Of a stretch of DNA of 32,000 bases, positions 2-25,232 are shown one piece after another (the stretch's first letter is position 1; each line of letters begins with the position of its first letter). The DNA comes from Horticoccus luteus (lineage in GTDB: Bacteria > Verrucomicrobiota > Verrucomicrobiia > Opitutales > Opitutaceae): contig NZ_CP080507.1 in the NCBI RefSeq assembly GCF_019464535.1, positions 840,001-872,000 on the forward strand, in the 5' to 3' direction. Under the pieces are notes generated by a model. That model ran no database searches. It was not told the DNA's origin and worked only from the letters and a program-made list of their open reading frames with translations. Made by a program: the position numbers and the translations under genes.

Positions 2-1700
2 GTGCGGGTGACGTCGGGCGAGGGTTGGACGTTCCGCAACCCGCAGCCGTCGTTTGCGCCGTATTACTCGGTGGCCTTTGGCGCGGGTCGTTACGTTGCC
101 GTGGGCGGGAGTGGCGTGATCGTCACCTCGACCGACGGCACCTCGTGGTCGGTCGCCGCGCATTTCTCGGATTTCATTCTCGATGTGGCGTATCACGGCA
201 CGCAGTTCGTCGCGGTCGGCAGTTACGGCAACGTCTTCACGTCCAATGACGGCCTGAGCTGGACGCCGCATTCCGCGGGGATTCCGCAGGAGTTGAACAG
301 CGTGATTTTCGCCGCCGGCAAATGGATTGCCACCGCCAGCAACGGCCAGGTGGTGACGTCGCCCGATGCGATCACGTGGACGGCGAGTTCCAGCCCGGTC
401 GGCTTTATCACCGGCCTCAGCGTGGGGCCGAACAATACCGCGATCGCGGTGGGCGACAAAAAATTTCTTACCAGTGCGGATGGTGTGACCTGGACGGCGA
501 CGTCGATTGCGAATGACGTTGATTTTGCCGACGTGGAATACGGCGCCGGGGTCTACCTCGCGAGCGGAGCGGATGCGATTTATCGCTCCACCGACGGTGT
601 CACTTGGGCGCCCACGACGATTGGCGAAACCACGACCGGCCTTTATTGGAACCGCCTGGTTTTCACGGGCAGCGGCTTCATCGTGGTCGGCGCGGAAGCG
701 CAAAGTTCCTCGCTGGGCTACATGATGACCTCGGTCGATGGTTTGGTGTGGACCGCGCGCACCGCGGAGCCGCTGCCGGGCCTGCAAGGCGTTACCAGCG
801 GCCCCAATGGGGTGGTGGCGGTCGGCGTATCCGGCGCGCTGCTGCAATCGACCGATAACGGCGTGACGTGGACGCGGCGTTACTCGGGCTTCACGTTTCC
901 GGGCAGCCTTTACAGCGTCGCGAACGGCACACCGGGAACCCTGGTGGTCGGCGACTACGGCAACGCGTGGCTCTCGACGACGCTCGGCGTCTGGAATCAG
1001 GTGGGTGGCAATACCGGCGAAAGCCTGCTCTCGGCCATTTATGCGGGCGGACGCTATGTCACGGTGGGCACCGGCGGGTATATTGCCCGTTCCACGTCGG
1101 CCGCGACAGGCACTTGGTCGGCCGCGACCACGGCGCCGGCGGTGAACTACCGCAGCGTGGCCTACGACACCGCGACTTCGACCTACACCGTCGTCGGTGA
1201 CAACGGCACCATCGCCACGTCGCCCGACGCCGCGGTGTGGACCACGCAGTCATCGAACTCCTCGCAATCGTTGCACGGCGTGGCAGCGGGTAATGGCGTG
1301 CGCGTCGCCGTCGGCACCGGTGGCACGATCCTCTATTCGACCAACGGGGGGGCGTGGACCAACGCCTCGTCGCCGGAATCGGGGCTGACCTACGAAGTCG
1401 TGGCGTTCGGGGGCGGCCGCTTCGTGGCGGCTGGTCGCTCGAACCACACCGTGATTATCACGTCAACCGATGGGGCGAACTGGCAGGAAGCCTACACGCC
1501 TTACACCGGGAGCATCCGCGGGCTGGCCTACGCCAACGGCAACTTTATCACCGTCGGCGGCACGTCGACGATTCTCACCTCGCCGGACGGCACGACTTGG
1601 ACGGCGGAGTCGTCGCAATATCCCTGGCTCCTGCGCGGTGTGACCGGCACTCCCTTCGGCTACGTGGTTGTGGGTGATTACGGTGCGATCGCGAGCAAGG
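2..1700 (+). repeat. Protein-level Asp-box (BNR-like) blade repeats, at least 11 clear copies (approximate bounds)
   Basis: The S/T-x-D-G-x-x-W motif recurs every 40-50 aa: TSTDGTSW, TSNDGLSW, TSPDAITW, TSADGVTW, RSTDGVTW, TSVDGLVW, QSTDNGVTW, TSPDAAVW, YSTNGGAW, TSTDGANW, TSPDGTTW. Each is preceded by a (F/Y)VAVG-type strand, which is typical of BNR/Ycf48-like beta-propellers. Confidence 0.8.
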
Positions 1701-7767: not shown

Positions 7768-10137
7768 ATGAAACACCTCCCTGTGCGCCGTCTTTTGCTG
7801 ACGGCCGTGTTCTTCCTGGCTGCGGCCCTTGTCGGAGCCGCCGCGCCCTACGGTCTCCCTGGCGGGCAGTCGGGCGTGACCTACAGCTTCGACGTGCCGA
7901 CGCACCTCTCGTCGACGCCGCCCGATGGCACCGTGTATGGTGCGACGGGACTGCCTTCGGGCGTGTCGATCAACGCGGCCACCGGAATCATCAGTGGCAC
8001 GCCGGCGGCCCAAGGAAGCTACAGCGGCAACATTTCGCTGCAGTATCCCACGACGCCGGTCACGACCGACAACCTCGCCTACACGTTGGTGATCGCGCCG
8101 CCCTCGGGCACGCCGGTCATCACGAGCACGCGCACTGCGAGCGGCACCGTGGGCACGCCGCTCACTTACACGCTCGCGGCGAATCCCGCGCCGACCAGCT
8201 ACAACGTCGGCACGCTCCCGCCCGGCCTCTCGTTTGATAACGTCGCAACCATCTCGGGCACCCCGACGGTCTGGGGTTCCTACACGGTCGCCGTGGCGGC
8301 GAACAACGATCTTGGCACGGGCGCGGAAACCACGCTCACGTTCTCGATCGCTCCCGCCGGCCCCGTGCCGGTTGTCACCGGCGGCACGCTCTCGCCGGAC
8401 GTTAACGCCGCCGTCAATTACCAGATCCAAGCCACGCAAACGCCGTCGAGCTTCGCGGCCGACGGGTTGCCGCCTGGACTCTCCGTAGATACAACGACCG
8501 GACTCATCACCGGCGCGCCCACCGTCGGCGGTCTCTACACCGTGAACCTGACCGCGACCAACAGCTACGGCACAAGCCTCCCCGCGACCCTCACCCTGCA
8601 AGTCGGCGTGTCCGCAATAAACTCGGCCGCCACGCTTGCCTTGACGGTTAACCAGGCGATGGCGCCGTTTGCCTTGAGCGCGACCCATTCGCCTCTGAGT
8701 TACAATGTCACCGGGGCTCTGCCGGCTGGCGTGGTCAATACCGCGGGCACGCTCAGCGGCACGCCCACCGGGACGGGCACCTTCGTGCTTTCGGTGAGCG
8801 CCAACAACGCCGTCGGCACAGGCCCCGCTTCGACGCTGACGATCACCGTCAACCCGCCGCCCCCCGTCATCACCACGCAGCCTGCCACGCAACTGATTGT
8901 CGCCGGTCAGCCCGCGACCTTCACCGTGGCAGCGACTGGCGCGGGCACGCTCACGTATCAGTGGAAGAAAAACGGTGCAGCGCTGAGCGGCGCTACCGCG
9001 GCCACCTACGCGATCACGAGCACGACGGCAGGTGACGCTGGCAGCTATACGGTCGACGTCAGCAACGCCTACGGCACGACTGGAAGCGCCGCCGCCGCGC
9101 TGACGATTGCGACCGCTCCGACCTTTACCACGCAGCCTGTGACCACCGCCGTGACCGAAGGCCAAAGCGTCACGCTGACCGCCGCCGCTTCCGGCACGCC
9201 GGCGCCGACCTATCAGTGGTACAAAGACAATGTCGCCATCGCCGGCGCCACGACGGCGAACTTCACGATTGCTGCCCCGACGACGGTGGATGCCGGCAGT
9301 TACACCGTCAGCGTGACCAACGCCGCCGGCACCGTGACCAGCTCAGCCGCCATTCTCTCGGTCAATCCGAGCAGCTATCTCTCCAACCTCTCCGTCCGCG
9401 CGACGATGACTCAGGGCCAGACGTTGATCGTCGGCTTCGTGATCGACGGCGGCGCGAAACCGGTGCTCGTCCGCGCAGCGGGTCCGGCCTTGAACGCCTT
9501 CGGTCTCACGGGCGTTGGCGATCCGCGGATCAACCTTTTCGATGCGGGCGCCAACCTCGTTGGCAGCAACGACGATTGGGACAGTTCGCTCGCTCCGCTC
9601 TTCCATGAACTCGGTGCCTTCGACTTCGTTGTGGGGAGCAAGGATGCCGCGCTGGAACAGTCCATCAACGGTCCGCACACCGCGCAGGCCAGCGGCACCG
9701 GCACCGGGACCATCCTCGTGGAAGGCTACGACGCCGGCGCCAACGATGGCCGCAAGCTCGTCAACCTGTCCGCTCGCTACCACGTCGGCACGGCGAACGA
9801 CATTCTCATCGCGGGCTTCGTGGTGGGTGGCACCGGCACCAAACAGGTGTTGATCCGCGCCGTCGGCCCGACCTTGGGCGGTTTCGGCGTCCCGGATACC
9901 CTGGCTGATCCGAAGCTCGTCATCTTCAACGGCGCCACCGTCGTCGCGACCAACGACAATTGGGACGCCAGCCTAGCGGCCACGTTCACCGAAGTGGGCG
10001 CGTTTCCGCTGCAGGAGAACAGCAAGGATTCCGCGATGGTCATCACGGTGCAGGCGGGCACGTCCTACACCGCGCAAGTTTCCGGCGCCGATGGCGGCAC
10101 CGGCGAGGCCATTGTCGAAATCTACGCGATCCCGTAA
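7768..10137 (+). CDS. Secreted repeat protein: signal peptide + 4 He_PIG repeats + 2 Ig-like domains + tandem-duplicated C-terminal module of unknown family
   Basis: ATG at 7768 lies 8 nt after the upstream stop; the stop is TAA at 10135-10137. The N-terminus MKHLPVRRLLLTAVFFLAAALVGAAAP looks like a signal peptide. He_PIG signatures: GIISGTPAAQGSY, ISGTPTVWGSYTV, ITGAPTVGGLYTV, LSGTPTGTGTFVL. Ig-like signatures: 'TYQWKKNGAALSGATAATYAI...AGSYTVDVSNAYG' and 'TYQWYKDNVAIAGATTANFTI...AGSYTVSVTNAAG'. A strong intrinsic terminator follows. Confidence 0.92.
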   Translation: MKHLPVRRLLLTAVFFLAAALVGAAAPYGLPGGQSGVTYSFDVPTHLSSTPPDGTVYGATGLPSGVSINAATGIISGTPAAQGSYSGNISLQYPTTPVTTDNLAYTLVIAPPSGTPVITSTRTASGTVGTPLTYTLAANPAPTSYNVGTLPPGLSFDNVATISGTPTVWGSYTVAVAANNDLGTGAETTLTFSIAPAGPVPVVTGGTLSPDVNAAVNYQIQATQTPSSFAADGLPPGLSVDTTTGLITGAPTVGGLYTVNLTATNSYGTSLPATLTLQVGVSAINSAATLALTVNQAMAPFALSATHSPLSYNVTGALPAGVVNTAGTLSGTPTGTGTFVLSVSANNAVGTGPASTLTITVNPPPPVITTQPATQLIVAGQPATFTVAATGAGTLTYQWKKNGAALSGATAATYAITSTTAGDAGSYTVDVSNAYGTTGSAAAALTIATAPTFTTQPVTTAVTEGQSVTLTAAASGTPAPTYQWYKDNVAIAGATTANFTIAAPTTVDAGSYTVSVTNAAGTVTSSAAILSVNPSSYLSNLSVRATMTQGQTLIVGFVIDGGAKPVLVRAAGPALNAFGLTGVGDPRINLFDAGANLVGSNDDWDSSLAPLFHELGAFDFVVGSKDAALEQSINGPHTAQASGTGTGTILVEGYDAGANDGRKLVNLSARYHVGTANDILIAGFVVGGTGTKQVLIRAVGPTLGGFGVPDTLADPKLVIFNGATVVATNDNWDASLAATFTEVGAFPLQENSKDSAMVITVQAGTSYTAQVSGADGGTGEAIVEIYAIP
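9370..10134 (+). repeat. Tandem duplication of an about 125-aa C-terminal module (copy 1 about 9370-9753, copy 2 about 9754-10134)
   Basis: My hand alignment of the two halves shares NLS-x-R, LI-x-GFV-x-x-G, K-x-VL-x-RA-x-GP-x-L-x-x-FG, DP, ND-x-WD-x-SLA-x-x-F-x-E-x-GAF, SKD-x-A and TAQ-x-SG...GTG...VE-x-Y. I estimate roughly 40% identity by eye. Confidence 0.7.
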
Positions 10138-12482: not shown

Positions 12483-14633
12483 CTAGTCCGCTTCGTCGAC
12501 CGCTAGTTTCCTTTCACTATACACGGTGCGCAGCACGATCTTGCCGCTATCGGCCAATGGCCGAAGACCTTCGTTTCTACCCATGGCGGTGTCCACAAAC
12601 AGTTCGTCCCACAAATGGAGCAACTCTTCCCACTCGGCCCGACTTCGCAGGTGAACGCCCGCCAGGAGCTTGGCCGCTTCGGGGTGAACGATTTCTCGGG
12701 CGCTGGAATTTGTCGCGTCGATGGTTTTACCCTGCGCTTGGGTCGCTTCCTGAAAGGCGGCAATATTGAGCACTGTCGCCAGAAGGATTTTTGCGAAAGG
12801 ATCGTCCGGTTGCAATTGCACCGCTTTGGCAAACGCTTCGCGCGCTCCAGCGAAGTCGGCGTCGCCTAAACTCACTTTGCCGATGGCGCGCCAAGCTTGC
12901 GCTTGGTGGGGGTCGAGCGCGACTTCTGCACGCCAGTCCGCGAGCGCGCCGGCGCGATCCTGCAGGAGATAGCGAATGTTGCCGCGCGCGCCGAGCGCCA
13001 CCGCGGCGAGATCGGGCGAGGCGTATTTCACCGTGGCTTCGGCTTCGACCAAAGCGTCGGGAAGGAAAACCATTGTACGCAAAATACTGGCGAGGTTGAA
13101 GTGCGCCACACCATGGCCGGCCTCAAGTGCGATGGCGGCCCGAAATGCCGGAATGGCACGGCGGTAGTCGCCGGCGTCGCTATAGATGGAGCCGACGTTG
13201 CTCTGGGCGTCGGCGTACTTCGGGTCGAGTTTCAGGGCCTGTTCGTAGGATTGCAGCGCATTATAGAGATCGCCTCGACGGCGATACTCATTGCCCAACT
13301 CCTTCCACTCACGGGCGGTCGCCGCAGGGCGATCGAGCGTTGCACCTCGGGTCGCTTCAATCAAATCGTCGGCGCCTTCCTCCAGCTGGAAGGACGCGAC
13401 CGGAGCCATCGGGTCGGCGGGGTGATGCAGCAGCGCCATCGACGCATAGGAGTTGGCCTGTTTTTGCGCCGCGCGCCGCAGACGAGCGCGGCCGCCGTCA
13501 GCTCGGATTTGGTCGGCTTTATATTGATAGAGTTCGCGCAGGGCATCCATCGCCTCAAAATTGTCCGCGCCCGTCGCAACGGCGGCTCTCTCGTCTTCCG
13601 TCCAGCTTAAACCGGGTGGATGAAGGCCCTCTTTCCTGATCGCCGGCGCGTTTTCGAGTTTGTACAGACTTTGCGCCCGCAACGCCAGCGCCACGGGGGT
13701 GCGTTTCAATGTCACACTGCGGGTGAAGTCGCGTTGCGCGGCATTCCAAAAGTACGCATCGGAGGCGGTAAAATTTTGGACTGAGTCGGGTTGGGGGAGC
13801 GAGGAGCCGGGTGCCTCGATGGCTTTGCTCTTGGGTTTGGTGAAGAGATCGCCGAAGCGGAGGTAGTAGCGACCCCGCTCCAGCCAGGCGTCGGCGTCGT
13901 CGGGGTTTTGCGCGATGGCGGCATTGCGGCGCGCGCCGTCTGGCGAAAAGAATTTTACGACCGCGAACTTTGGGTCGAGTTTGAGGACTTCGGCCCAGGT
14001 TGTCTGCGTATTCTCCAAGTCACCCTTTTGATAGTAGGCGAGGCTGAGAGCGACATAGGCGTCGCGCAAAATTGCACTTTCTTTGGGAGCGCGCGCTTTT
14101 GCATCGAGTGCGTCCGCCAGCGCCGCGTCAGGCCGGTTGAAATAAAGGTGCACAAGCGCGCCGACCAGGCATTGGCGAGCGTGACGCGACTCCCAGCCTT
14201 TGCCGCGCCGCGCCTCTTTCATGGAGCGATTCGCGCCGTCCCAATCTCCCGCCCGGAGTTGGTCCCGGGCTTGGTTTGTCCGGATCATCGCCTCTCCGTT
14301 GATGAGAGTTTTATATTTCCCATCGTAAATCTTAAAGCGCATGGCGTCGGCCAAATACCAATCCCAGGCAGCATCTTTCCACTGCTTAAGCTTCTCATAA
14401 ACGAGCGCCCGCTTCTGGTAGGCCAAAGCCAATTGGTAGTAAGTATATTGTGCCTTGTCTCCGACGTCGGTTTCCTTGACCTGCCTTTGCAAGGCGTCAA
14501 TGGATGCCGTCTGTTCTTGAAGTTGCGTTTGCAGTTGCTGAGACGTCGGAGCGTCGGCGGCACGCACCATCGGCGCGCCGAGAAGCAGAGCAGTGACGAG
14601 AACAAAAGATTTCATGGCGGCGAGCGTGACCAT
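12483..14633 (-). CDS. Secreted TPR-repeat protein
   Basis: Stop is TAG (reverse complement of 12483-12485). The start is probably ATG at 14633 (MVTLAAMKSFVLVTALLLGAPMVRA|ADAP) or ATG at 14615 (MKSF...); both give a Sec signal peptide. The GTG at 14741 would add 36-42 aa ahead of the signal peptide. Multiple TPR-like units are present, e.g. 'WKELGNEYRRRGDLYNALQSYEQALKLDPKYADAQSNVGSIYSDAGDYRRAIPAFRAAIALEAGHGVAHFNLASI'. Confidence 0.85.
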   Translation of the reverse strand: MVTLAAMKSFVLVTALLLGAPMVRAADAPTSQQLQTQLQEQTASIDALQRQVKETDVGDKAQYTYYQLALAYQKRALVYEKLKQWKDAAWDWYLADAMRFKIYDGKYKTLINGEAMIRTNQARDQLRAGDWDGANRSMKEARRGKGWESRHARQCLVGALVHLYFNRPDAALADALDAKARAPKESAILRDAYVALSLAYYQKGDLENTQTTWAEVLKLDPKFAVVKFFSPDGARRNAAIAQNPDDADAWLERGRYYLRFGDLFTKPKSKAIEAPGSSLPQPDSVQNFTASDAYFWNAAQRDFTRSVTLKRTPVALALRAQSLYKLENAPAIRKEGLHPPGLSWTEDERAAVATGADNFEAMDALRELYQYKADQIRADGGRARLRRAAQKQANSYASMALLHHPADPMAPVASFQLEEGADDLIEATRGATLDRPAATAREWKELGNEYRRRGDLYNALQSYEQALKLDPKYADAQSNVGSIYSDAGDYRRAIPAFRAAIALEAGHGVAHFNLASILRTMVFLPDALVEAEATVKYASPDLAAVALGARGNIRYLLQDRAGALADWRAEVALDPHQAQAWRAIGKVSLGDADFAGAREAFAKAVQLQPDDPFAKILLATVLNIAAFQEATQAQGKTIDATNSSAREIVHPEAAKLLAGVHLRSRAEWEELLHLWDELFVDTAMGRNEGLRPLADSGKIVLRTVYSERKLAVDEAD

Positions 14634-14955
14634 TGCGAACCGGCTGTTCGCGCGGGAAAATTCCGTCGCCGACGCCGCTAGGCGCGCCAAGGAAGCTGAA
14701 GCAGACGTGAGAAAGACCGGACCGAGTCGGATTTTAACCATTTAAACGGACGGTGTAGGTTGGGCGCAGGGCGTTGGCGAGACGTACCGGGCAATTGAAT
14801 GAGTGGAATCTCTGGAGTCGCACGGAGGGTGCGAAGGCTGCGTGTCCCTTTTGTTGTTCGAGGCCGGAGCAAATCCGCCTGGGGGCCCGCAATTCAGTCG
14901 AGGCAGGCCGAAACACGTTTGTGCTGCCGACGATTTGGTCTCAGCGTGGCCGCGC

Positions 14956-15618
14956 ATGATTCGTCGTTTATCCCTCACCCTGGCTGGTGCGCTGGCCGTT
15001 TTCTTGGCCGGCTGTGCGACGCCGACGACGGAGCCGCTCAACCTGACGACGGCGAAAAAGGCCGTGGTGGGATATGTGGAGTCGGGTCAGTATGAGCGCC
15101 AAGTGCAAGCGGTGGCCACGGAGGCCGTGCGGACGGTGGAGGCACGGGTGGCGCGACGCAGGGCGGGGGAAAAACTCGCGGTGGTGTTCGATATCGATGA
15201 GACGATCATCTCGAATTTGCCGCACATGCGCGCGATGGATTTCGGTTATGTGCCGAAATTGTGGGACGCGTGGGTCGATCGCGGGGAAGGTCCGGCGATT
15301 GCGCCCGTGGTCGAGGTGTATCGCACGGCGCGGCGTCTGGGCGTGGAGGTTTTCTTCCTCACAGGTCGCCATGAGTCGGACCGTCCGGGCACGTTGAAGA
15401 ACCTGGCGGCGATCGGCTGCGGTGACTTTCGAGAACTGATCTTGAAGCCGCCCGGGACGAGCCAGACGACCGGTGAGTTCAAGACGGCCACACGACGGCG
15501 GATCATGGAGAGCGGCTACGCGATTATCGCGAATATCGGCGATCAGGTGAGTGACCTCGAGGGTGGGTTTGCGGAGCGGACATTCAAGCTGCCAGGGCCG
15601 TTTTATATTGTGCAATGA
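14956..15618 (+). CDS. Lipoprotein class-B (HAD subfamily IIIB) acid phosphatase
   Basis: ATG at 14956 gives MIRRLSLTLAGALAVFLAGC with an L-A-G-C lipobox. HAD motif I is 'VVFDIDETI' (DxDxT), motif II is 'FFLTGR', and motif III/IV is 'K...IANIGDQVSD'. This is the PF03767-like plant/bacterial acid phosphatase pattern. The upstream extension to 14803 has no support. Confidence 0.85.
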   Translation: MIRRLSLTLAGALAVFLAGCATPTTEPLNLTTAKKAVVGYVESGQYERQVQAVATEAVRTVEARVARRRAGEKLAVVFDIDETIISNLPHMRAMDFGYVPKLWDAWVDRGEGPAIAPVVEVYRTARRLGVEVFFLTGRHESDRPGTLKNLAAIGCGDFRELILKPPGTSQTTGEFKTATRRRIMESGYAIIANIGDQVSDLEGGFAERTFKLPGPFYIVQ

Positions 15619-16550
15619 ACGACATCATTGGCGTTGATATTGGCGGGACGAAATGCGCGCTCAGCGTGCCGGTGGGCGACGGGCGCGTGGAAGAAGTGGC
15701 CCGATTCGCGACGACGGACGTGCGCGCCACGCTGGAGCGGATTTACGCGGAGATCGCGAAGCTCGCGCCAACGCGGGATGCTGTATTCGGCGTCTCGTGC
15801 GGTGGACCGCTGGATGCGAAACGCGGGTTGATTCTCTCGCCGCCAAACTTGCCGGGATGGGATCGCATCGCGATTTGCATGGAGTTGACGCAGCGATTCG
15901 GCGGGCGTGCGTTTCTGATGAACGACGCGAATGCGTGCGCGCTGGCGGAGTGGCAGTTTGGCGCGGGGCGCGGCTGCCAGAGCATGATGTTTCTCACCAT
16001 GGGTACGGGGATGGGCGCGGGCCTGATTCTCGACGGCCGACTGTATGAAGGCGTCACAGGCAACGCCGGCGAAGTCGGACACCTCCGCATGGCGCCCGAC
16101 GGGCCGGTCGGTTACGGGAAGACGGGATCGTTCGAGGGATTTTGTTCGGGTGGTGGGATCGCGCAACTCGCGCGCGAACGGGTGCGGACATGGGCAGGGC
16201 AGAGCCAGTTGCAAACGCTCCCACGGGAAGAAATCACGGCGCGCGCGGTGGGCTTGGCGGCGGAAGCGGGCGATGCTCTGGCGCTGGCGATCTGGCGCGA
16301 CGTCGGAACGCGGCTCGGCGAGGCGCTGGCGTGGTTCATCGACCTGCTGAACCCGGAGCGAATCGTGATTGGGAGCATCTATGCGCGGTGCGAAAAGTTC
16401 CTGGTGCCCGCGATGAACGAAGTGATCGTAAGAGAAGCGTTGCCGGACAGTGCGCGCGATTGCCGAGTTGTGCCCGCCGAGCTCGGCGACGAAATCGGCA
16501 GCTACGCAGCCGTAGCGATCGCGCGGTATCATGGCGCGAGGACGAGCTGA
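15615..16550 (+). CDS. ROK-family sugar kinase (atypical: zinc-motif cysteines absent)
   Basis: ATG at 15615 overlaps the upstream stop (ATGA at 15615-15618). The N-terminal ATP motif is 'IIGVDIGGTKCAL', followed by 'NDANACALAEWQFGAGRG' and the ROK signature 'GTGMGAGLILDGRLYEGVTGNAGEVGHL'. Stop is TGA at 16548-16550. Confidence 0.88.
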   Translation: MNDIIGVDIGGTKCALSVPVGDGRVEEVARFATTDVRATLERIYAEIAKLAPTRDAVFGVSCGGPLDAKRGLILSPPNLPGWDRIAICMELTQRFGGRAFLMNDANACALAEWQFGAGRGCQSMMFLTMGTGMGAGLILDGRLYEGVTGNAGEVGHLRMAPDGPVGYGKTGSFEGFCSGGGIAQLARERVRTWAGQSQLQTLPREEITARAVGLAAEAGDALALAIWRDVGTRLGEALAWFIDLLNPERIVIGSIYARCEKFLVPAMNEVIVREALPDSARDCRVVPAELGDEIGSYAAVAIARYHGARTS

Positions 16551-16590
16551 CACTTCGGTGCGATGCATTCCCACTACAAACAACAAAGCC

Positions 16591-16630
16591 TGACCTCTTC
16601 TCCGTTAACTTGACCTCTTCTCCGCTAACT
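16591..16630 (+). repeat. Tandem 20-bp direct repeat upstream of the kinase gene (possible operator, iteron or insertion scar)
   Basis: TGACCTCTTCTCCGTTAACT (16591-16610) is immediately followed by TGACCTCTTCTCCGCTAACT (16611-16630), a 19/20 match. The array ends 22 nt before the ATG at 16653. Confidence 0.8.
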
Positions 16631-16652
16631 CACCTCAACTACCAGTCTCTGA

Positions 16653-17690
16653 ATGAGCAACCTAGCTAGCAATCTCGTAGGGCATGACTTGAACGGTTGG
16701 ATCGTAACTAAGAAAATCTCGAAATTCGGCGGCACGGGCGGTGCATTTTCTTCAGCCTACCTTGTCCAGCATAAAGACGGGCGCGATGCATTCTTGAAGG
16801 CGATAAACATCGGGTATGCGATGAATATGTTTTTGCCCACGGGAAAGAGGCGAAATGAGATACTGCAGGACATAACCGAGAATTTTGAGCATGAGGTCGA
16901 TCTGCTTGAGGCTTGTGACACCAAACGTCTTGATCGCGTGGTGGTTGCCATAGAAGAGGGCGAATATCGCCACCCTAGCGATCCATACTACATCCCCTTT
17001 TTGATCTTCGAGCTGTGCAAGGAAGGAGATGTTCGGCGTCACCCAAAGATGGCCGCCGCTGGGGTGACGTGGCCGCTGCGAGTGTTCCACGAAGTCTGCG
17101 TAGGCCTAAAGCAACTCCATTCGATCAACATCATCCATCAAGACCTAAAACCATCTAACGTGCTGATCGCGGCAGGCACAAAAGCAAAAATCGCCGACTT
17201 GGGTCGCGCTACCGTTTCCGGTTCACGCGCGATGTTCTCTGGTGCTAATCACTGGGGCGACACGGACTACATGCCCATTGAGTTTCACTATAATCACTTC
17301 GAGCCTGATCCCACAGTTCGGCAGAAGGCGGCAGACTTTTACATGTTAGGAGGGGTATTGGCATTTCTCGTCTGCAAGATTAATATCTTCAGCTTGATTT
17401 TGACTAAATTGCCGGCCGCTTATCATCCGATGAACTGGACCGGTGGGTTTAATGCTGCTCTACCGGCGCTTCACACTGCCACTATTGATGCGGTTGCCGA
17501 CATCGTGGCGAGCTTGCCGGACGTAGTTAAGAGCGACGTTAGGGAGATGATACTCTTTCTCTGTCACCCCGAACCATTGAAGCGCGGGCATCCCAAGACC
17601 GTGATTCAAGCCAGCGGAGACCGGTATTCTATGGAAAGAATTGTCACGACTGCTGACCGCGTCGCAAACAAGGCGCGGCTGATCCCATGA
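16653..17690 (+). CDS. Minimal Hanks-type (eukaryote-like) Ser/Thr protein kinase, non-RD (HQD) variant
   Basis: All core subdomains are readable. They are: the Gly-loop 'KFGGTGGAFSSAY'; the VAIK-like 'AFLKAI' (K49); the alphaC Glu in 'FEHEVDLL'; the catalytic loop 'HQDLKPSNVLI' (D164 at 17142-17144, K166, N169); the Mg-binding 'KIADLG' (DFG to DLG, D182); the APE-like 'TDYMPIE'; 'DFYMLGGVL'; and the subdomain XI Arg in 'HPEPLKRG'. No TM, PASTA, FHA or other sensor domain is present. Confidence 0.85.
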   Translation: MSNLASNLVGHDLNGWIVTKKISKFGGTGGAFSSAYLVQHKDGRDAFLKAINIGYAMNMFLPTGKRRNEILQDITENFEHEVDLLEACDTKRLDRVVVAIEEGEYRHPSDPYYIPFLIFELCKEGDVRRHPKMAAAGVTWPLRVFHEVCVGLKQLHSINIIHQDLKPSNVLIAAGTKAKIADLGRATVSGSRAMFSGANHWGDTDYMPIEFHYNHFEPDPTVRQKAADFYMLGGVLAFLVCKINIFSLILTKLPAAYHPMNWTGGFNAALPALHTATIDAVADIVASLPDVVKSDVREMILFLCHPEPLKRGHPKTVIQASGDRYSMERIVTTADRVANKARLIP

Positions 17691-19342
17691 ACCAAGGTCT
17701 CGGCGACAAATATGTCGTTCCGCAGTGGCTGCCGTTCAGGGTGGCATCTCAAACCAGAGAGCTGACGACGTTCCCTGTCCCTGGGCCGGTGATTGACTAC
17801 GGTCCTGCGAGGATCGCATTTCAGGAATCGTTAGATGATTTTAAACAGGCCCCATCTGTTTTCGTAGGCACAGAGCTGATGGGCGTCGCGGATGTCATCG
17901 GACTTAAGACATCTGCGAAGTGGCTTGCGGAGTATGTTTTGACTGAGCCGATAGCTGGGAAGGTTGCGCACGGACAGGCCCGGCGGATTCTTGGGGAGGT
18001 CGCCGTAAGTCAATTGAGCGAGCGTGCCGCCATCCAAAGCAGAAAGGCCCGATTGCAGGACTTTCCACACGACGCGATCGCGTGGATCGAGCAAGCGAGA
18101 TTGTACACGATCCTCGGCCAAAGGAAAAAAGCCGAGAGGGCGATCAAGGTGGGGGTGCACTTAGCGCCATCTAACCGTTTTGTTATTCGTGCCGCAGTGC
18201 GGTTTTATATTCACTACGACGAGTGGGATGAGGCTCTCCGTGTCGCAGCGCGCGCGCACGCGATCAATCCAGACCCATTGATTTTCGGTCCATTACTGAG
18301 CGTTGCGACTTATTTGAAAAAAATGCCGAAGAGCACCAAAGCGGCCGGAGAAGCCGCGCTAGCGGCGGACAAGCCTTTCGTCTTTTCTGAGACCTTGGAG
18401 GCCATAGGTACGCTGGAGGTGTTGAACGGGGCGGAGCAGCGTGCAAAGAAATTCTTTCGGCATGCTTGGGTTGATCCGACTAAATCCGTCATCGCGCATA
18501 GTCAGTGGATTCTTCGCGAGCAAATCCCGGGGCTGGCCGCTGATCGTAGGTTCGACTTCACTCAGAGTAACGAAGCCTTGGGTTGGCTGCGCTTCGCGTT
18601 TTTAGATTTTAAGGGTGCGTATGCCTCAAGCACTGCATGGGCATTGGAAGAACCTTATTCAAAATCTCCTTACGTCTTGGGGACCATTGCTGGATGTCAG
18701 GCAGAGCGATTCGACCTCGCGATTGAAGCTGGTGAACGTGGCCTCGGAGCTAATCCCAAGGATTCACTACTTCTAAATAATCTAGCCTTCGCGTACCTTA
18801 GAAACGGCGATGCGGTTTCAGCTAGAAAACACTTTAACTCGATTAAGCACCTCGCGGATGCGCCAGAGGAAATCGCCCCAGCTGCTACATATGGACTACT
18901 ACTGATGGCGGAGGGTGCGCAGATTAAGGGTCTAGAATACTATTCGACCGCTATTGACCGCGCGGTGAAATGCGGCAACCGGAGACTCGCGTTGCGCACG
19001 ACGTTGAACCTGATTATCTCCAGACTCGATACTGCAAAGACAATAGACCCGTCGGTGCTTCGAAAGGCGATGGAGACTTTGCCTCAATATCAAGACCCCG
19101 GATGCCTAGGCGCTGCACGGGCAATAAATCGGCGACTACAGGCGGCCACGTTCACAAGTTCTGTCGAGCTGGGGACTGTAGCACGGGAATTTCGGGACTC
19201 TGTGGAAAAAGAATCATCGCGATACCTTGCTGCAGTTCAGGGGCGTTTTATTGACGTAGTCGCAAGAGATCACAGCCCGAAGACGCACGATATCCTCCCG
19301 CTCGAATCGCCCAACAGAGAGCCCGAATTATTCTCAAAGTGA
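17687..19342 (+). CDS. TPR-like all-helical repeat protein, partner of the kinase (function unknown)
   Basis: The ATG at 17687 overlaps the kinase stop (ATGA at 17687-17690). The gene has the same low GC as the kinase. TPR-like units include 'AIAWIEQARLYTILGQRKKAERAIKVGVHLAPSN' and 'SLLLNNLAFAYLRNGDAVSARKHFNSIKHL'. I see no P-loop, nuclease, protease or other catalytic motif. The N-terminal about 110 aa do not resemble anything I recognise. Confidence 0.8.
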   Translation: MNQGLGDKYVVPQWLPFRVASQTRELTTFPVPGPVIDYGPARIAFQESLDDFKQAPSVFVGTELMGVADVIGLKTSAKWLAEYVLTEPIAGKVAHGQARRILGEVAVSQLSERAAIQSRKARLQDFPHDAIAWIEQARLYTILGQRKKAERAIKVGVHLAPSNRFVIRAAVRFYIHYDEWDEALRVAARAHAINPDPLIFGPLLSVATYLKKMPKSTKAAGEAALAADKPFVFSETLEAIGTLEVLNGAEQRAKKFFRHAWVDPTKSVIAHSQWILREQIPGLAADRRFDFTQSNEALGWLRFAFLDFKGAYASSTAWALEEPYSKSPYVLGTIAGCQAERFDLAIEAGERGLGANPKDSLLLNNLAFAYLRNGDAVSARKHFNSIKHLADAPEEIAPAATYGLLLMAEGAQIKGLEYYSTAIDRAVKCGNRRLALRTTLNLIISRLDTAKTIDPSVLRKAMETLPQYQDPGCLGAARAINRRLQAATFTSSVELGTVAREFRDSVEKESSRYLAAVQGRFIDVVARDHSPKTHDILPLESPNREPELFSK

Positions 19343-19541
19343 CTACGGAGAGGTTGTAGAGTTCATTCGTAAGCTCTCGACGGTTTTCGGGCTACTGCGG
19401 CCAGCTCACCGTTCCTTCGCGCCGTCGTAGCGGATCGCGTGACCGGCGGAGTGTCGGGCGTTGTTGAGGAAGCGGATGGAGAGGTGGACCCGTCCGTTGG
19501 ACAGCGGATGGATAGATTAAGTTATGAGAGACAAACGCTCA

Positions 19542-22511
19542 TTAGGTGCCTTGGCGACGCACACAAGCTCGCGCCTGATACCGCGCGAGACGTTCCCGCA
19601 GGTTTTTCAGGCCGATGCCCAGCGAGGGCAGCTCCGGGGGCTTGCCATCGGGCTCGATCCACAGGCCGGTGTTGGAGACGAGCAGGTCGATGGCGTCGCC
19701 CGCGCGCCGGACTTCGATTCGCACCCCGATGCGATCTTCGCTGGTGGCGTGGCCGTATTTGATCGCGTTCTCGACCAGCGGGAGGAGCAGGAAGTGGGGT
19801 AGTGGCATTTTTTCCAGTTCGGTCGGGCAATCGATCATGATTTCCAGCCGATCGCCCCAGCGGGTCTTTTCGATCTCGAGGTAGGCGCCGAGTTGCCGCA
19901 ATTCCTCGCCAACGGTGGTGCGCTCCCGCTCGTCGTCGCGGTAAAGCGTGGTGCGGCAAAACTCCGACAAGCGGGTCAGCATCGAACGCGCGGCGCCTGC
20001 GTTCGCCGGCAGCGTGGCGTTGAGCGACGCGAGCGCGTTGAAAAGAAAGTGCGGGTTGAGCTGGTAGCGGAGCGTCTCGAGCCGGGCTTGTTCCTCGGCC
20101 AGGCGCGCGGCCGTCTTCTGGTCGAGCTCGAGCTTGTGCAGGCGCGCCAACTCCTCGTTTTGCAGGAGGAGCGTCGCGGTGCGCTCCGCCACGACTTTCT
20201 CCAAGACCTCGGCGCGTCCCCGCAGTTGGAGCGTGCGGAGGTGGACGATCCCGCCGATTCCCGCCGCACCCAACAGGGCGTAGCCGCACCAGGCCCAGGG
20301 CTTGCGCCACCACGGCGCCAGCCGCGTGAACGCAAACACCGCCTCGCTGCCCGCGCGTCCCGCGTCGTCGCGCGCTTGCACCCGGAATCGAAAGGCTCCC
20401 GGAGGCAGGCTGGAGTAATCCCGTCGCGCCCCGTCCCCCCACGCCGACCAGTCGGAATCGATGCCGTCCAAACGGGTGCGATAGGTCACGTTGACCCGCC
20501 CGTTGCCGTCCGTCTGGAAAAACGGAGCCGCGAACGAGAAACGCACAGACTTCTCGTTCGGACCCAGCGTGCCGCCGGGGACTTTCCCCGCGCCACCCCA
20601 GACGACGCGGCCCGCGGCCGTCTCGACGCGCCGCACGAAGGCGGTGGGCGGAGGCGGGATGGCCCCGTGCCAATCCTTCTTTGTCGCTGCGATGCCCAGA
20701 TACCCGATCCACCAAGCGTCGGCGGCCGGGTCGTCACCCACCGCCGTGGGCCGGATCGACTCAAGTCCATTGCGTGGCAGTGTCTCGAATCGCCAGGCGT
20801 CCGGACCCGTGCGGCGAGCGAGGGCCGCCGCGTCTTCGATCCGCGTGTTGGCCATCCAGAGCGATCCGTCGGCCAAGGGAAACGCTCTCGACCACCGGCT
20901 CGGGTCGAGGCCCGCGATACGATCCTCAGCGCGGAAAAGATCCGTGGCGGGATCGTGGCGCCAGATGCCCTGCCAGTTGCATGCTTCCACGCTTCCGTTC
21001 CATGCGAAAATCCACACGCGAAACGTCGGCTTCTCCGCCTCCGGCAGGCCCCGCTCCGGGCCGATACGCTCCGGTTTCGCGTCGAGACGCACGCCCCCGC
21101 GCCAGTCCAGGCGCACCAGTTCCAGCCGGTTGCGCGTGCCCCACAGCCAGCCCGCTTCGTCCTCGACGAGTGGATATAGTGGCATGCGCACGCCCGGCAC
21201 CTCGGCCTCGAAACGCCAATGTCTGGTGCCGTCGGATCCAGTCTCCTGGCGATAGAGCAGCAACAACCCGTCGGGTCCGGTGCTCGCGACGAGGCGGTCG
21301 GGCTCGCGCCGCAGCCGCAGCGCGGCGCGGAAACCCAGCCGCCGCTCATCGATCATTTCGACGCGGCCGTCCGACTTGAGCAGCCGGAGGTTGTCGCCCG
21401 CCACGATCAGCCCGTCCTCGGTCGGCACCAGCGCCCAGGCGTCCATCCCGCCCTGCGGCAGAAGGGTGAATCTTCCGTTCGCCTCGTCCCGCGCCAGCAC
21501 CCCCGTGGTCGTAGCGGCGTACAGGTGGCCCTGATAAAACGCAAATGCCTCCACCCGCCCGTGCAGATCCGAGGGCGAGACGTGCAGCGAGGTCGGCCCG
21601 TCGAACTGGGCGCGGATTACCCCGCCGTAATGCGTTATCCATACGCCGCCATCCCTGTCGGGTGTGAGCGAGGAGATCTTTCCGCTGGTCGGCACATAGC
21701 GGTCGTCACGGCCGTAACGGCTCAAGATGTGGCCGGCGGTGTTTACCAGCAGCAGACCGTTTGCGTCCGTCCCGAGCAGAAAGACACCGTTGCGCACCGG
21801 GCAGCCGGCGGTCACGCGGTCGCCCGCCAGCGCGTTGCGCACCTCTTCTGAGACCAGCCGTGCCGCGTCTCCGATCCAGTTGTGCAGACCATCGGCGCAC
21901 ACGATCCAAGTCGCGCCATTCGCTCCCGGCCAAAGCGAAACGATGCCCGCTGTTCGCACGGCGCCTGAGGCCGGGACTGGCCTGGTCGCCCCGGCCTCGA
22001 TGCGCCAGACCCCGGCGCGCGTGACGAAATACGGTCGGCCGTCGTGCGTGAAGAGAGAGGTGCAGCCTCCGTCGATCGGCATCACCGTGACGCGGTCGCG
22101 GACGTCCACCCGGACAATCGCCGGGCGCAGGCCCTGCGTGGCGAACCACGCGTCCTCGCCCGTCAGGACCAGGTGCAGGACGTGCCCGACCTCACGGTAG
22201 GCGGCCGGTAAATCGCCCTGCAGCAGGCGTGCGACCAAGATGCCGTGTGGATCAGGTTCCAGCAGGCCAAAGACGCCGGCGCCGGAGAAAAAGACCCGCC
22301 CGGACGCCGTCACCGCGACGTTATGCACGATCATGCCCTCGGTGCCTCGAATCAGTCTCCAAGATACGCCGTCATATTCGATCAGGCCCTCGATCGTGCC
22401 GACATACACGAGGCCCGCCGGATGGAGGGCGACCGCTCGCGTATGCGGATTGGTCGGCAAATCCCTTTCCGTAAAAGCGCGAATGATCGGCCCGCCGGTG
22501 TCCCTCGCCAA
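19542..22511 (-). CDS. LytS/YehU-type sensor histidine kinase with periplasmic two-component-regulator propeller + Y_Y_Y domain; possibly decaying (see findings)
   Basis: The Y_Y_Y-like region is 'VTYRTRLDGIDSDWSAWGDGARRDYSSLPPGAFRFRVQARDDAG'. A TM helix 'WAWCGYALLGAAGIGGIVHL' and a coiled coil follow. The His_kinase (PF06580-like) H-box region is 'LRYQLNPHFLFNALASL'. The HATPase N-box is 'LLLPLVENAIKYG', G1 is 'LLVSNTG' and G2 is 'SLGIGLKNLRERL'. The ORF-track start is TTG at 22511. The ORF ends only about 20 aa after the G2 box. Confidence 0.8.
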   Translation of the reverse strand: MARDTGGPIIRAFTERDLPTNPHTRAVALHPAGLVYVGTIEGLIEYDGVSWRLIRGTEGMIVHNVAVTASGRVFFSGAGVFGLLEPDPHGILVARLLQGDLPAAYREVGHVLHLVLTGEDAWFATQGLRPAIVRVDVRDRVTVMPIDGGCTSLFTHDGRPYFVTRAGVWRIEAGATRPVPASGAVRTAGIVSLWPGANGATWIVCADGLHNWIGDAARLVSEEVRNALAGDRVTAGCPVRNGVFLLGTDANGLLLVNTAGHILSRYGRDDRYVPTSGKISSLTPDRDGGVWITHYGGVIRAQFDGPTSLHVSPSDLHGRVEAFAFYQGHLYAATTTGVLARDEANGRFTLLPQGGMDAWALVPTEDGLIVAGDNLRLLKSDGRVEMIDERRLGFRAALRLRREPDRLVASTGPDGLLLLYRQETGSDGTRHWRFEAEVPGVRMPLYPLVEDEAGWLWGTRNRLELVRLDWRGGVRLDAKPERIGPERGLPEAEKPTFRVWIFAWNGSVEACNWQGIWRHDPATDLFRAEDRIAGLDPSRWSRAFPLADGSLWMANTRIEDAAALARRTGPDAWRFETLPRNGLESIRPTAVGDDPAADAWWIGYLGIAATKKDWHGAIPPPPTAFVRRVETAAGRVVWGGAGKVPGGTLGPNEKSVRFSFAAPFFQTDGNGRVNVTYRTRLDGIDSDWSAWGDGARRDYSSLPPGAFRFRVQARDDAGRAGSEAVFAFTRLAPWWRKPWAWCGYALLGAAGIGGIVHLRTLQLRGRAEVLEKVVAERTATLLLQNEELARLHKLELDQKTAARLAEEQARLETLRYQLNPHFLFNALASLNATLPANAGAARSMLTRLSEFCRTTLYRDDERERTTVGEELRQLGAYLEIEKTRWGDRLEIMIDCPTELEKMPLPHFLLLPLVENAIKYGHATSEDRIGVRIEVRRAGDAIDLLVSNTGLWIEPDGKPPELPSLGIGLKNLRERLARYQARACVRRQGT

Positions 22512-23135
22512 CTGGACCTCGCTCCGCCCCGTCGCAACGAGAAGGGCGGCACCGGCTAGCAGGTTAATCGCCCATTTATGATGGGCGGATGTCTGTCGCG
22601 TAATATCGCGTCAATCAAGGACGTAATGCCATTTTAGGTTGAACGAAAAACCCTCGGTAAAGGCAGAGATCCGCCGGTCTTGACTTCCCACACTACGCCG
22701 CGGAATGACCAAGGCCAGGCGCGCGGGCAGCGAGAGACACCTGTCTTGACTCGTGATCCTCCGCCGGAGTGCCTGTGCCACGGCGGACGGCGGAGGCGAG
22801 CGGAGACAAAAGCCTCACGGCTTCCGCTACGATGAGCGGACCTACGCGCTCGCCGCGTAGAAAAATGGCATAGGGGAACGAAAGTCTTACGGCCTCCGTT
22901 GCGGGTGAGCGGGGGCGATTCGCGCGAAGGCTTCGGGCTCGCGGCAGACTACAGGCGGTAAGGTCTCTTTCAAACGAAGGATCACAGACAGGAATGCCGA
23001 TGTTACAGTGAGAGGCGGGTTGATTATTCCGGAAGAAAGATCGGCGCGGGGCACTTTTGGCGATGACAGGCGGGAGTCGGGTCGTAGGGTCGGCGCGGGC
23101 GACAGCGGATGAACCGGTGCCGTCCCGCGCAATTT

Positions 23136-25232
23136 ATGAAGCAGACTCGCAGAAACTTCCTGCAAACGACTTCTCTGCTCGCGGCTTCGTTGCCGCTCTC
23201 AGCCCGGCTTTCCGCCATGACTACCCCCGCTTCTTCCTCCGCTGCGGCGCCCGCAGGGGCGCAACGCGGCTTGCTGTTCGACGACGCGGATTTGCCGCGC
23301 ATCCGAGCCAATACCACCGATCCGCGTTTTGCGGCGCTTTGGCAGTCGATGCTCGCTGCGGACATGGCGGCCGACACCGATTTTCTCGAGCACCATGTGC
23401 GGCTGCACAATCACGTCGTAGATATGTTGCACGTGCAAAAAATTCTGGAGCGCGCGTCGTTTATCTACGTCGTGAATCGCGATCCGGCGCAACTGAAGCT
23501 CGCACGGCTGGCGATCCGGCGGCTGTTGGATTATCCGGATTGGGACAACTTCATCGAGGGCGGGCGGCAGATCATTGGTCTGCAGCGCGCGCCGGAGGCG
23601 ACGGTGGCGTTGCTCTTTGCGATCGAGTGGCTCGGCGATGGGTTGAGCGCGGCGGAGCGTGAGGAGATCGAGCAGGCGGTCGTGGCGAAGGGCGTGCCGG
23701 CGAGTTACACGAGCGTGTATGGGATGAAATATCCCGACCGCGTGAAAGGCTGGGAATGGAATCCGCGGAGCGAGGTGGATGAGTTTCGCTATATCGATTT
23801 GAAACGCTGGCCGTTGATTCTCGCGGCGACGAATTTACGGATCATCCCGACCGGGGCGCTCGGTATTGCGGCGTGCTATTTTCACGACCGGCTGCCGCAG
23901 GCGGCGGGATGGCTGGAGCTGGCGCGGTCGAGCGCGAAGTCGTTTTCGTCGATGTATGGCAGCGACGGCAGCTACGACGAGGGCGTGAGCTACTGGGGCT
24001 ATACGACGTTGTTCATGGCGATGTTTGCCGAGGTGTTGTGGCGCAAGACGGGCATCGATGACCGGTCGTTGATCAACTACCCGGGCACCGTGCGCTACGC
24101 GTTGAGCATGACGATGCCGACGATCGACAGCGGGCTCAAGGTGCAGGATTTCCAGCACGTGAAGGGTTACATGATGCCGACGGTGAAGCCGGAGCACGAC
24201 ATCGTGAACTTTGGCGATGCGAACGGCGCGGTGGATGTCTCGGTGGCGGCGTGGGTCGAGCGCACGAAGCACGATGCGGTGGCGCAGTTCGTGGCGCGCG
24301 ACATCGGTGAGGCGAAGTTTCACTTCGGGATGATCTGGTATGACGCCGGCGTGAAGGCAGCGGCACCGGAGGCGGCGTTACTCGATCACCGCATGAGCAA
24401 CGATCTCGTGGTGTCGCGGACGGGCTGGGCGGCGGAGGACAGTGTGCTGGCGCTGCGCAGCGGCGGACCGGCGAATCATGAGCACGCGGATCGCAACAGC
24501 ATTATCTTCAAAGCGCATGGGGAGCGCTTGCTGCACGATCCTTTTCGCGCGGCGTATGTGCGGACCGATCCGCGCTGGCTGCTGCGGCTGACACCGGCGC
24601 ATACGGCGGTGTTGATCGACGGCAAGGGCCATCAATATCACGACGGCAGCGAAGGCACGAACGCGTCGTGGGCGTTTGCGCGCGTGATCGATTTCCGGAC
24701 GGGCGAGGGATGGATGACCGTGACGAGCGACGCCACGGATGCCTACGCGCTCGTGAACGAAAATGTGCAGCGGGTGCAGCGGACGCTCGTGTTTCTAAAA
24801 CCGGAAGTCGTGGTGATCTTCGATCGCGTCGCGATGAAGGGAGCGCCGCTGACGGTGCAACTGCACTTTCAGGCGAACAACGAAGATTTGGGCGCGAAGG
24901 TGTCGGCGTCCGGTTCGGAGTTTCTGATCGAGCGCCCGCGGGCGTCGTTGCGCGGTCGCGTGGCGGCGGCGGGCGCGGTGACCGTGGCAACGGACAAGCT
25001 CCCGCTCGCAGAGAAGGACGGGATTTACCCGTTTGCAGCGGTCGAGTCGGCGGCGGCGAACGAACACGAGATCGTCACGGTTTGCACGGCGCGGCCGAAG
25101 GGCGAGGCGCACGGCGACGTGCGCATCGTGCGCGACGGTGGGGCGTGGCGGGTGCAGGGCGAGCACGGCGGCCGACGGATCGATGTGCGGCTGGCGGCCA
25201 CGGGCGACGGCGCGCCGGCGGTCACGCTTTGA
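23136..25232 (+). CDS. Tat-exported heparinase II/III-like polysaccharide lyase family protein
   Basis: ATG at 23136 gives MKQTRRNFLQTTSLLAASLPLSA, a twin-arginine signal (RRNFL). The C-terminal half carries the Hepar_II_III-like motif 'GGPANHEHADRNSIIFKAHGERLLHDP'. The alginate-lyase-like helical N-terminal half is inferred. Stop is TGA at 25230-25232. Confidence 0.78.
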   Translation: MKQTRRNFLQTTSLLAASLPLSARLSAMTTPASSSAAAPAGAQRGLLFDDADLPRIRANTTDPRFAALWQSMLAADMAADTDFLEHHVRLHNHVVDMLHVQKILERASFIYVVNRDPAQLKLARLAIRRLLDYPDWDNFIEGGRQIIGLQRAPEATVALLFAIEWLGDGLSAAEREEIEQAVVAKGVPASYTSVYGMKYPDRVKGWEWNPRSEVDEFRYIDLKRWPLILAATNLRIIPTGALGIAACYFHDRLPQAAGWLELARSSAKSFSSMYGSDGSYDEGVSYWGYTTLFMAMFAEVLWRKTGIDDRSLINYPGTVRYALSMTMPTIDSGLKVQDFQHVKGYMMPTVKPEHDIVNFGDANGAVDVSVAAWVERTKHDAVAQFVARDIGEAKFHFGMIWYDAGVKAAAPEAALLDHRMSNDLVVSRTGWAAEDSVLALRSGGPANHEHADRNSIIFKAHGERLLHDPFRAAYVRTDPRWLLRLTPAHTAVLIDGKGHQYHDGSEGTNASWAFARVIDFRTGEGWMTVTSDATDAYALVNENVQRVQRTLVFLKPEVVVIFDRVAMKGAPLTVQLHFQANNEDLGAKVSASGSEFLIERPRASLRGRVAAAGAVTVATDKLPLAEKDGIYPFAAVESAAANEHEIVTVCTARPKGEAHGDVRIVRDGGAWRVQGEHGGRRIDVRLAATGDGAPAVTL

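Follow-up and report, generated by a model that had tools for sequence, protein, structure and literature searches.

Within a 32,000-nt stretch of the genome of Horticoccus luteus (Opitutaceae, Verrucomicrobiota; contig NZ_CP080507.1, positions 840,001 to 872,000; hereafter the window), the interval 16551–19380 holds exactly two open reading frames (ORFs), both on the + strand. The first (16653–17690) encodes a 345-residue Hanks-type, or eukaryotic-like, Ser/Thr protein kinase, and the second (17687–19342) encodes a stand-alone superhelix of tetratricopeptide repeats (TPRs), 551 residues long and without a catalytic domain. The two products correspond to the A and B components of PDC-M71, a catalogued phage defence candidate. 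With moderate confidence, we read the interval as a horizontally acquired copy of the PDC-M71 module that works as an immune (anti-phage or anti-mobile-element) unit.

The cassette and its two proteins

The two genes overlap by an ATGA read directly from the sequence (17687–17690, + strand), in which the kinase stop codon and the TPR start codon are shared, indicating that the genes are translationally coupled. This junction had been described in a first-pass annotation of the window made from the sequence alone, as had a tandem direct repeat ahead of the pair, and both descriptions hold. The repeat consists of two 20-bp copies with a 95% match (TGACCTCTTCTCCGYTAACT; 16591–16630, + strand; Tandem Repeats Finder score 73) and ends 23 bp before the kinase ATG. 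It is unique in the window, none of 100 shuffles gave a match, and it was not found upstream of the cassette in the closest relative (locus L104); it could be an operator or promoter element or an insertion scar. A promoter and terminator scan returned one promoter-like site, within the kinase gene, and terminator-like matches within coding sequence. In a homologue search, the kinase product was 100% identical to 'protein kinase [Horticoccus luteus]' and the TPR product was identical to the H. luteus 'hypothetical protein K0B96_03350'.

The kinase matches Pfam Pkinase (4.5e-16) as well as PK_Tyr_Ser-Thr, and it carries the motifs of the Hanks class: a glycine-rich loop (G-loop, GGTGGAFS), the VAIK lysine (K49), an HxD catalytic loop with its asparagine (H162-Q-D164-x-K-x-x-N169), a DFG-like aspartate (D182-L-G) and an APE-like motif (P208-I-E210). 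Among 40 homologues, K49, H162, D164, K166, P167, N169, D182 and G184 are invariant, which bears out the earlier choice of K49 and D164 as catalytic residues, and Q163 is present in at least 90%. The HQD catalytic loop makes this a non-RD kinase, and its activation loop lacks a conserved Ser or Thr; the combination suggests that the kinase is regulated by something other than activation-loop phosphorylation. An AlphaFold2 (AF2) model has the protein-kinase fold (pLDDT 90.5, pTM 0.90). Its structural neighbours in Foldseek are generic (SIK3, CDK2 and CAMKK2, with TM about 0.55–0.6), and neither Foldseek nor PDB sequence searches returned a close solved relative. The kinase appears catalytically competent.

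The partner protein has weak Pfam matches to TPR_19, TPR_14 and TPR_17 and no enzymatic domain in Pfam or NCBIfam. Its AF2 model (pLDDT 83.5) shows a solenoid built entirely of helices, about 27 in number, that spans residues 38–521, and the C-terminal 27 residues are predicted to be disordered. Its structure and sequence neighbours are generic TPR proteins, for example OGT, Ski3 and consensus TPR, with no solved relative among the Foldseek and PDB matches. Candidate elements of a kinase–TPR interface are a conserved motif near the N terminus, VLPQWLPF, and conserved residues of the concave face (N364/N365, R168/R172, W274 and W318).

Assignment to PDC-M71

We searched both proteins against the profile models of PADLOC-DB v2 (v2.0.0). 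The kinase matches PDC-M71A at E = 4.4e-91 (303.9 bits), with residues 3–343 aligned to positions 7–347 of the 352-position profile. The TPR partner matches the PDC-M71B model PDLC04781 at E = 9.2e-75, with residues 7–466 aligned to positions 9–490 of 515, and a second PDC-M71B model, PDLC04782, at 2.7e-34. The A-then-B order, the single strand and the tight adjacency also match the catalogued cassette (FAM_02024>>FAM_01393), and no structural difference separates this copy from it. The pair therefore almost certainly belongs to PDC-M71. The first-pass annotation had proposed an undescribed system; these near-full-length matches show that the proposal was wrong, and only the word 'uncharacterised' still fits.

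PDC-M71 stems from a study in which genes embedded in BREX, DISARM or type I restriction–modification (RM) systems were collected, an approach called guilt-by-embedding, and curated to 145 computational phage defence candidates (PDC) (Payne et al. 2024, bioRxiv 10.1101/2024.01.29.577857). In that study, PDC-M71 (CAS_00219) is represented by 31 cassettes in RefSeq v209, just over the paper's cut-off. Our literature search found no paper naming PDC-M71, and the candidate is not among the systems assayed in two candidate-testing studies, the cold-seep PDC tests and DefensePredictor. Relatives of the H. luteus pair are embedded in type I RM systems, which is how the candidate was picked, whereas the copy described here is solitary, lies in a Verrucomicrobiota genome and is neither embedded in nor beside a defence system.

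Composition and insertion site

The interval is a compositional outlier. Its guanine–cytosine (GC) content is 0.528, against 0.647 in the rest of the window, and 235 other segments of the same 2,830-bp length all have a GC content of at least 0.605 (mean 0.649, s.d. 0.024). No 300-bp segment of the interval goes below 0.48, and only single 60-bp stretches fall lower. The GC drop noted at first pass is thus real, but its size was overstated: the mean is 52.8% rather than 42–45%, and the flanks range from 60 to 71% rather than standing uniformly at 67%. GC content at third codon positions (GC3) sets both genes apart from 11 neighbouring genes (0.79 ± 0.05), at 0.60 for the kinase (z = −3.9) and 0.56 for the TPR gene (z = −4.6). 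To the right, a low-GC tail 3′ of the TPR stop codon (19343–19405) marks the approximate edge of the compositionally foreign DNA, with 60-bp GC values of 0.45–0.57 across it and up to 0.72 at 19400.

The site itself can be compared with those of related genomes. The gene to the left of the interval, an ROK-family glucokinase (15615–16550, + strand; Pfam ROK 3.6e-51), has homologues with 76–87% identity in many Opitutaceae genomes and is a core gene of this family. In three relatives from the Opitutaceae (loci L081, L083 and L084/L085), the gene immediately after ROK encodes a heparinase II/III, with a symporter gene next in L083. The window has its own heparinase II/III-like gene (23109–25232, + strand; Pfam Hepar_II_III_C), the product of which is 50–70% identical to that of the gene directly after ROK in L081, L083 and L084. 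A tblastx comparison with three relatives shows homology that stops at 16550, at the conserved left flank, and resumes near 23262. Judged by this gene order, heparinase II/III is the ancestral right-hand neighbour of ROK.

The adjacency of ROK and heparinase in the three relatives defines a Horticoccus-specific segment of about 6.5 kb (16551 to about 23100), which ends at the heparinase gene and includes a histidine kinase gene. The synteny comparison proposed at first pass found three genomes that have ROK without the pair at the same site and heparinase next to it. The GC and GC3 outliers uphold the view of the pair as compositionally foreign. The pair does lie in lineage-specific DNA, as had been supposed, but the right boundary originally drawn near 19380 was too narrow, and the histidine kinase, taken at first pass to adjoin ROK natively, is not its original neighbour. 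Nor did we find a response regulator gene beside it, where a histidine kinase/response-regulator pair had been expected.

The empty site in relatives shows lineage-specific acquisition even without an integrase, tRNA or flanking repeats, and we consider horizontal acquisition of the cassette very likely. The window has no integrase or transposase, as was noted at first pass, and likewise no tRNA or Rfam element; with no convincing flanking repeats either, we do not class the segment as a genomic island or integrative element.

The closest relatives of the pair are 79% (kinase) and 74% (TPR) identical at the protein level. At the DNA level they match the window at about 69% identity over 16653–19273 alone, a span that begins at the kinase ATG and ends close to the TPR stop codon. 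In L104, DNA similarity is confined to the coding sequences of the two genes, which in essence are the transferred unit. The L104 cassette also has a lower GC content (0.52–0.58) than its flanks (0.60–0.70). The closest named homologue, from Terriglobia, is 50% identical, and another copy in Opitutaceae is only 45% identical.

Pairing and divergence across the family

A scan of 185,579 species genomes returned at least 478 relatives, of which the best 80 loci were analysed. These span more than 15 phyla, with a patchy distribution. In 79 of them the next gene downstream, on the same strand, is a TPR homologue, and the 80th ends at a contig edge. The search for co-occurring homologue pairs therefore found the same kinase-then-TPR order in 79 of 79 testable loci, and the pairing is obligate. 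With longest-ORF starts, the junction seen most often is a 4-nt overlap (21 loci), and the junctions fall almost without exception between −53 and +19 nt. No third gene recurs across the 80 loci beside the kinase and TPR genes. The suggestion of a kinase and TPR module is borne out: the two genes form a unit that is mobile and self-contained.

The two proteins have also diverged together. Pairwise identities among the kinases and among their TPR partners correlate strongly (Mantel r = 0.90, with 0 of 2,000 permutations as high), and the TPR partner is the more divergent, with a mean identity of 0.30 compared with 0.40 for the kinase. A profile of the TPR partner was searched against 1.84 billion proteins and matched 2,014 representatives (clusters at 50% identity) at E ≤ 1e-30. 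All of the best 150 matches are stand-alone proteins, mostly of about 500 residues, with a few shorter fragments.

Genomic neighbourhoods

Several lines of evidence associate the homologous pairs with defence and mobile DNA. First, type I RM genes recur beside them. HsdM is a neighbour in 11 of the 80 loci and HsdR in 9, and HsdM-type genes are concentrated within three genes of the pair on either side (11/429, against 3/718 farther away; Fisher p = 0.003). In one locus (L076), the order HsdM-HsdS-kinase-TPR-HsdR is a true embedding of the pair, and in six others (L030, L040, L044, L052, L053 and L079) the pair directly follows hsd genes, in L079 with hsdMSR and then an OLD-like ATPase/Toprim gene ahead of it. 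Other neighbours include Peptidase_M78 (4/80) and GmrSD (3/80). When 150 near neighbours and 150 distant genes were compared, the former matched 362 PADLOC families and the latter 197; the near-neighbour matches are led by type I methyltransferase and specificity models with 5–6 members each, whereas the distant genes have at most 2 members per family.

Second, the pair is found on mobile DNA. Tyrosine integrases occur in 15 of the 80 loci and are directly adjacent to the pair in 4, and in 28 loci at least one of three kinds of gene (type I RM, GmrSD, integrase) lies no more than 10 kb from the pair. Three plasmids, from Arthrobacter, Deinococcus and Rhizobium, carry the pair among relaxase, insertion sequence, integrase, PDDEXK, Pycsar and NACHT genes. 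Fourteen viral contigs in IMG/VR also carry it. In two P2-like prophages (L095 and L098), replication gene A (gpA; Phage_GPA, 2e-122 and 7e-105, respectively) is followed by the kinase, the TPR gene and then portal and terminase genes, and in L094 the pair lies beside a prophage integrase. The position of the pair in L095 and L098 is the gpA–gpQ locus, which has been shown to be a hotspot of anti-phage systems (Rousset et al. 2022, PMC9122126). The pair thus repeatedly sits where defence cargo sits, and the association of homologue pairs with defence or mobile DNA, by which the first-pass proposal was to be judged, is evident at type I RM operons and the P2 hotspot as well as on plasmids and next to integrases.

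Some loci have further genes close to the pair. A gene for a small MarR-family regulator lies directly upstream in four loci, among them L069 (9557–9976) and L103 (3570–3980; Rhizobium etli plasmid pRetIE4771b); the protein may be a dedicated transcriptional regulator of the pair in that sub-clade. Two Nitrospirota loci (L004, 8972–9935, and L006) have two small conserved ORFs of about 125–130 and about 185 residues and a ThiF/E1-like gene just upstream, which may be another linked accessory system. In Pedobacter sp. KLB.chiD (L063, 13228–15093), a gene that follows the pair at a distance of no more than two genes has a match to PADLOC PifA (4.8e-44). Finally, an IMG/VR contig of a Mu-like or transposable prophage (L090, 2598–8926) encodes a 1,070-residue helicase and a 1,039-residue Eco57I-type methyltransferase followed by the pair, which here is close to terminase; the arrangement resembles an RM-like system carried by a phage, to which the pair has been attached.

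Other features of the window

Most of the genes around the pair have carbohydrate-related or sensory roles by Pfam, and they include those for GHL6, TPR proteins, an acid phosphatase, ROK, the histidine kinase, heparinase II/III and a sodium-solute symporter. The Y_Y_Y/LytS-type sensor histidine kinase (19542–22511, − strand; 989 residues; Pfam His_kinase 5.3e-20 and Y_Y_Y 5.7e-9) lies inside the Horticoccus-specific segment, yet it is not part of the kinase–TPR module. Its GC3 of 0.82 is host-like. With host-like GC and GC3 inside a 6.5-kb segment missing in three relatives, the gene either moved here or came earlier. Between it and the heparinase gene, about 600 bp (22512–23108) have no convincing ORF.

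The histidine kinase has an abrupt end (…RLARYQARACVRRQGT*), with a HATPase_c match that reaches only position 90 of the 111-position profile. Three-frame translation shows a short stretch of host-like codon usage on the same strand but in a different frame (19406–19541, − strand). Just downstream of the histidine kinase gene, within 19406–19545, a 34-codon out-of-frame stretch with host-like GC3 (HPLSNGRVHLSIRF…AKER*) comes after an AT-rich patch of about 45 bp. The 3′ end of the histidine kinase gene may have been clipped, displaced or frameshifted where the low-GC cassette ends on the right. When the histidine kinase C terminus was conceptually fused to the out-of-frame fragment, no Pfam match resulted.

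The left flank of ROK (12483–15618) holds genes for a 752-residue TPR protein (− strand) and acid phosphatase B, with a GC content of 0.58–0.62 and GC3 of 0.68 and 0.72, respectively, below the rest of the window. Relatives carry inositol-phosphatase and GHMP-kinase genes upstream of ROK instead, and this flank also looks rearranged or acquired. Farther left, a giant ORF of more than 2,585 residues (2–7759) extends beyond the window end and is followed by a 789-residue He_PIG/Ig-domain protein (7768–10137); both are probably large surface or adhesin-type proteins. Near the right end, an 892-residue ORF (29251–31929, − strand) with a host-like GC3 of 0.83 matches no Pfam family at E ≤ 1e-5.

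Discussion

The neighbourhoods of its relatives make a defence function of the pair probable, though well short of certain. Several observations weigh against it. At the H. luteus locus itself, a Pfam scan found no defence or mobility gene adjoining the pair in the window, and the region 16300–19800 has no att-like or flanking direct or inverted repeats, only short matches at chance level. Among the 80 loci, 52 lack any RM gene or integrase that could be recognised within 10 kb, and neither integrases nor HsdR genes are significantly nearer the pair than more distant genes are. No match was found at 1e-20 in 50,697 GenBank phage genomes, and our literature search found no experiment on PDC-M71 or a homologue.

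Three other explanations account for parts of the same evidence. The pair might be an addiction module of the toxin–antitoxin kind, in which the kinase would act as a toxin that arrests growth and the TPR protein would inhibit it stoichiometrically. Its main role would then be to stabilise the mobile elements or islands that carry it, with phage defence as a by-product, so that this explanation and a defence role are not exclusive. An obligate, translationally coupled and co-diverging pair found on plasmids, prophages and integrase-flanked islands is what such a module would look like. However, the presumed antitoxin is a large, well-folded solenoid of 551 residues encoded downstream, and typical antitoxins are small and labile. 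Kinase toxins do exist, as HipA and the HipA-like defence system DS-6 (PMC13092281) illustrate, but the kinase here has the Hanks rather than the HipA fold. Membership in HipBA was rejected on the same grounds: the matches are to Pkinase and PK_Tyr_Ser-Thr, HipA domains are lacking, and the partner is a TPR solenoid instead of a helix-turn-helix antitoxin. Embedding in RM operons and in the P2 hotspot also points to defence cargo over plain stabilisation, and we consider an addiction module unlikely.

Less probable still is a role in counter-defence or host takeover, whereby the kinase would phosphorylate host proteins, including defence proteins, to the benefit of a phage or plasmid. The copies on 14 viral contigs and three plasmids would fit this role, and the phage T7 kinase is a reported precedent; a phage kinase that disarms defences is described in PMC13645617. 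Most copies are chromosomal, however, and several are co-oriented within host type I RM operons. The prophage copies lie in the gpA–gpQ accessory hotspot, which is expressed in lysogeny and known for superinfection exclusion genes (PMC9122126), and the blank result in the GenBank phage genomes argues in the same direction.

Hanks kinases and TPR scaffolds are common in the signalling of Verrucomicrobiota and Planctomycetota, and the carbohydrate-related genes and histidine kinase nearby would suit a kinase and TPR scaffold that regulate an ordinary host process, such as one of the envelope or carbohydrate metabolism, with the odd composition incidental, but the empty site in three relatives, the patchy spread over more than 15 phyla in wholly different neighbourhoods, the copies on prophages and plasmids and a GC3 4 s.d. 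below that of host genes make this very improbable.

If the pair is instead an immune unit, as we favour, its two proteins suggest a tentative mechanism. The faster-evolving TPR protein would bind the kinase as a sensor or gatekeeper, its superhelix holding a constitutively competent non-RD Hanks kinase in check. A phage protein binding in the TPR groove would release or activate the kinase, which would act without activation-loop phosphorylation and would then phosphorylate host or phage proteins to stop the infection, probably by arresting growth or by abortive infection, as Stk2 and PD-T4-6 do. This specific scheme, in which a sensor gates a kinase, is a possibility that we put forward with considerable reserve. 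Equally speculative is the broader idea of PDC-M71 as a kinase-based immune system with a new mechanism, analogous to NLR/Avs sensing but made of two polypeptides and with protein phosphorylation as its output; as part of the same idea, the family would have spread across more than 15 phyla by way of prophage hotspots and RM islands.

Comparison with known systems helps to place these proposals. Stk2 of Staphylococcus epidermidis and PD-T4-6 of Escherichia coli share with the pair a Hanks-type kinase as presumed effector and a proposed logic that runs from a phage trigger through kinase activity to arrest of infection. Both are single-gene abortive-infection systems, whereas the PDC-M71 kinase has a separate TPR partner in every testable locus. 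We do not assign the pair to either. The PADLOC Stk2 model matches only kinase residues 147–240 (about 90 residues; E = 5.8e-6), and the best PD-T4-6 model gives a partial match (9.6e-14) far below that to PDC-M71A, quite apart from the obligate partner.

For the partner, the likeness is to Avs and other STAND-NLR proteins, in which a TPR superhelix is the likely element that recognises phage proteins. Here the TPR array is a separate polypeptide without a STAND nucleoside triphosphatase (NTPase) or a fused effector, and the effector would be the kinase. Membership in Avs/STAND was rejected, given that Pfam and NCBIfam find no NTPase domain and the AF2 model consists of helical repeats throughout; nor is there an Avs protein among the top 50 Foldseek matches or all 10 PDB-sequence matches of the partner, which are generic TPR proteins only.

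Mycobacterial PknG, a non-RD Hanks kinase with a TPR module that serves to regulate or target it, resembles the pair in its parts. PknG is a single polypeptide that also includes a rubredoxin domain and serves a housekeeping or virulence function, unlike the two genes and mobile habit seen here, and no PknG chain is among the 60 best PDB sequence matches of the kinase. PglW, of Pgl/BREX type 2, is another Ser/Thr kinase in a defence system, as proposed for the pair. It is a large multidomain protein and works with PglX, PglZ and other BREX genes. With no PglX, PglZ, BrxC or other BREX gene among the 13 window genes, we set membership in BREX type 2/Pgl aside.

Only a few examples of phage defence by kinases are known, single proteins such as Stk2 and PD-T4-6, and PDC-M71 is a widespread two-protein candidate version of this kind of defence, with about 2,000 clusters at 50% identity in more than 15 phyla. 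The H. luteus pair is a member of this catalogued candidate family and not a newly recognised system, and the window offers a clean example of a solitary defence-candidate cassette within a carbohydrate-utilisation locus. What the analysis adds is a stronger case for the family. Beyond guilt-by-embedding, the candidate now has the support of obligate pairing, co-divergence with a faster-evolving TPR protein and conserved catalytic residues, together with placement in the P2 gpA–gpQ hotspot and in type I RM operons. If the immune reading is true, the family would show a stand-alone repeat sensor gating a eukaryotic-like kinase in bacterial immunity.

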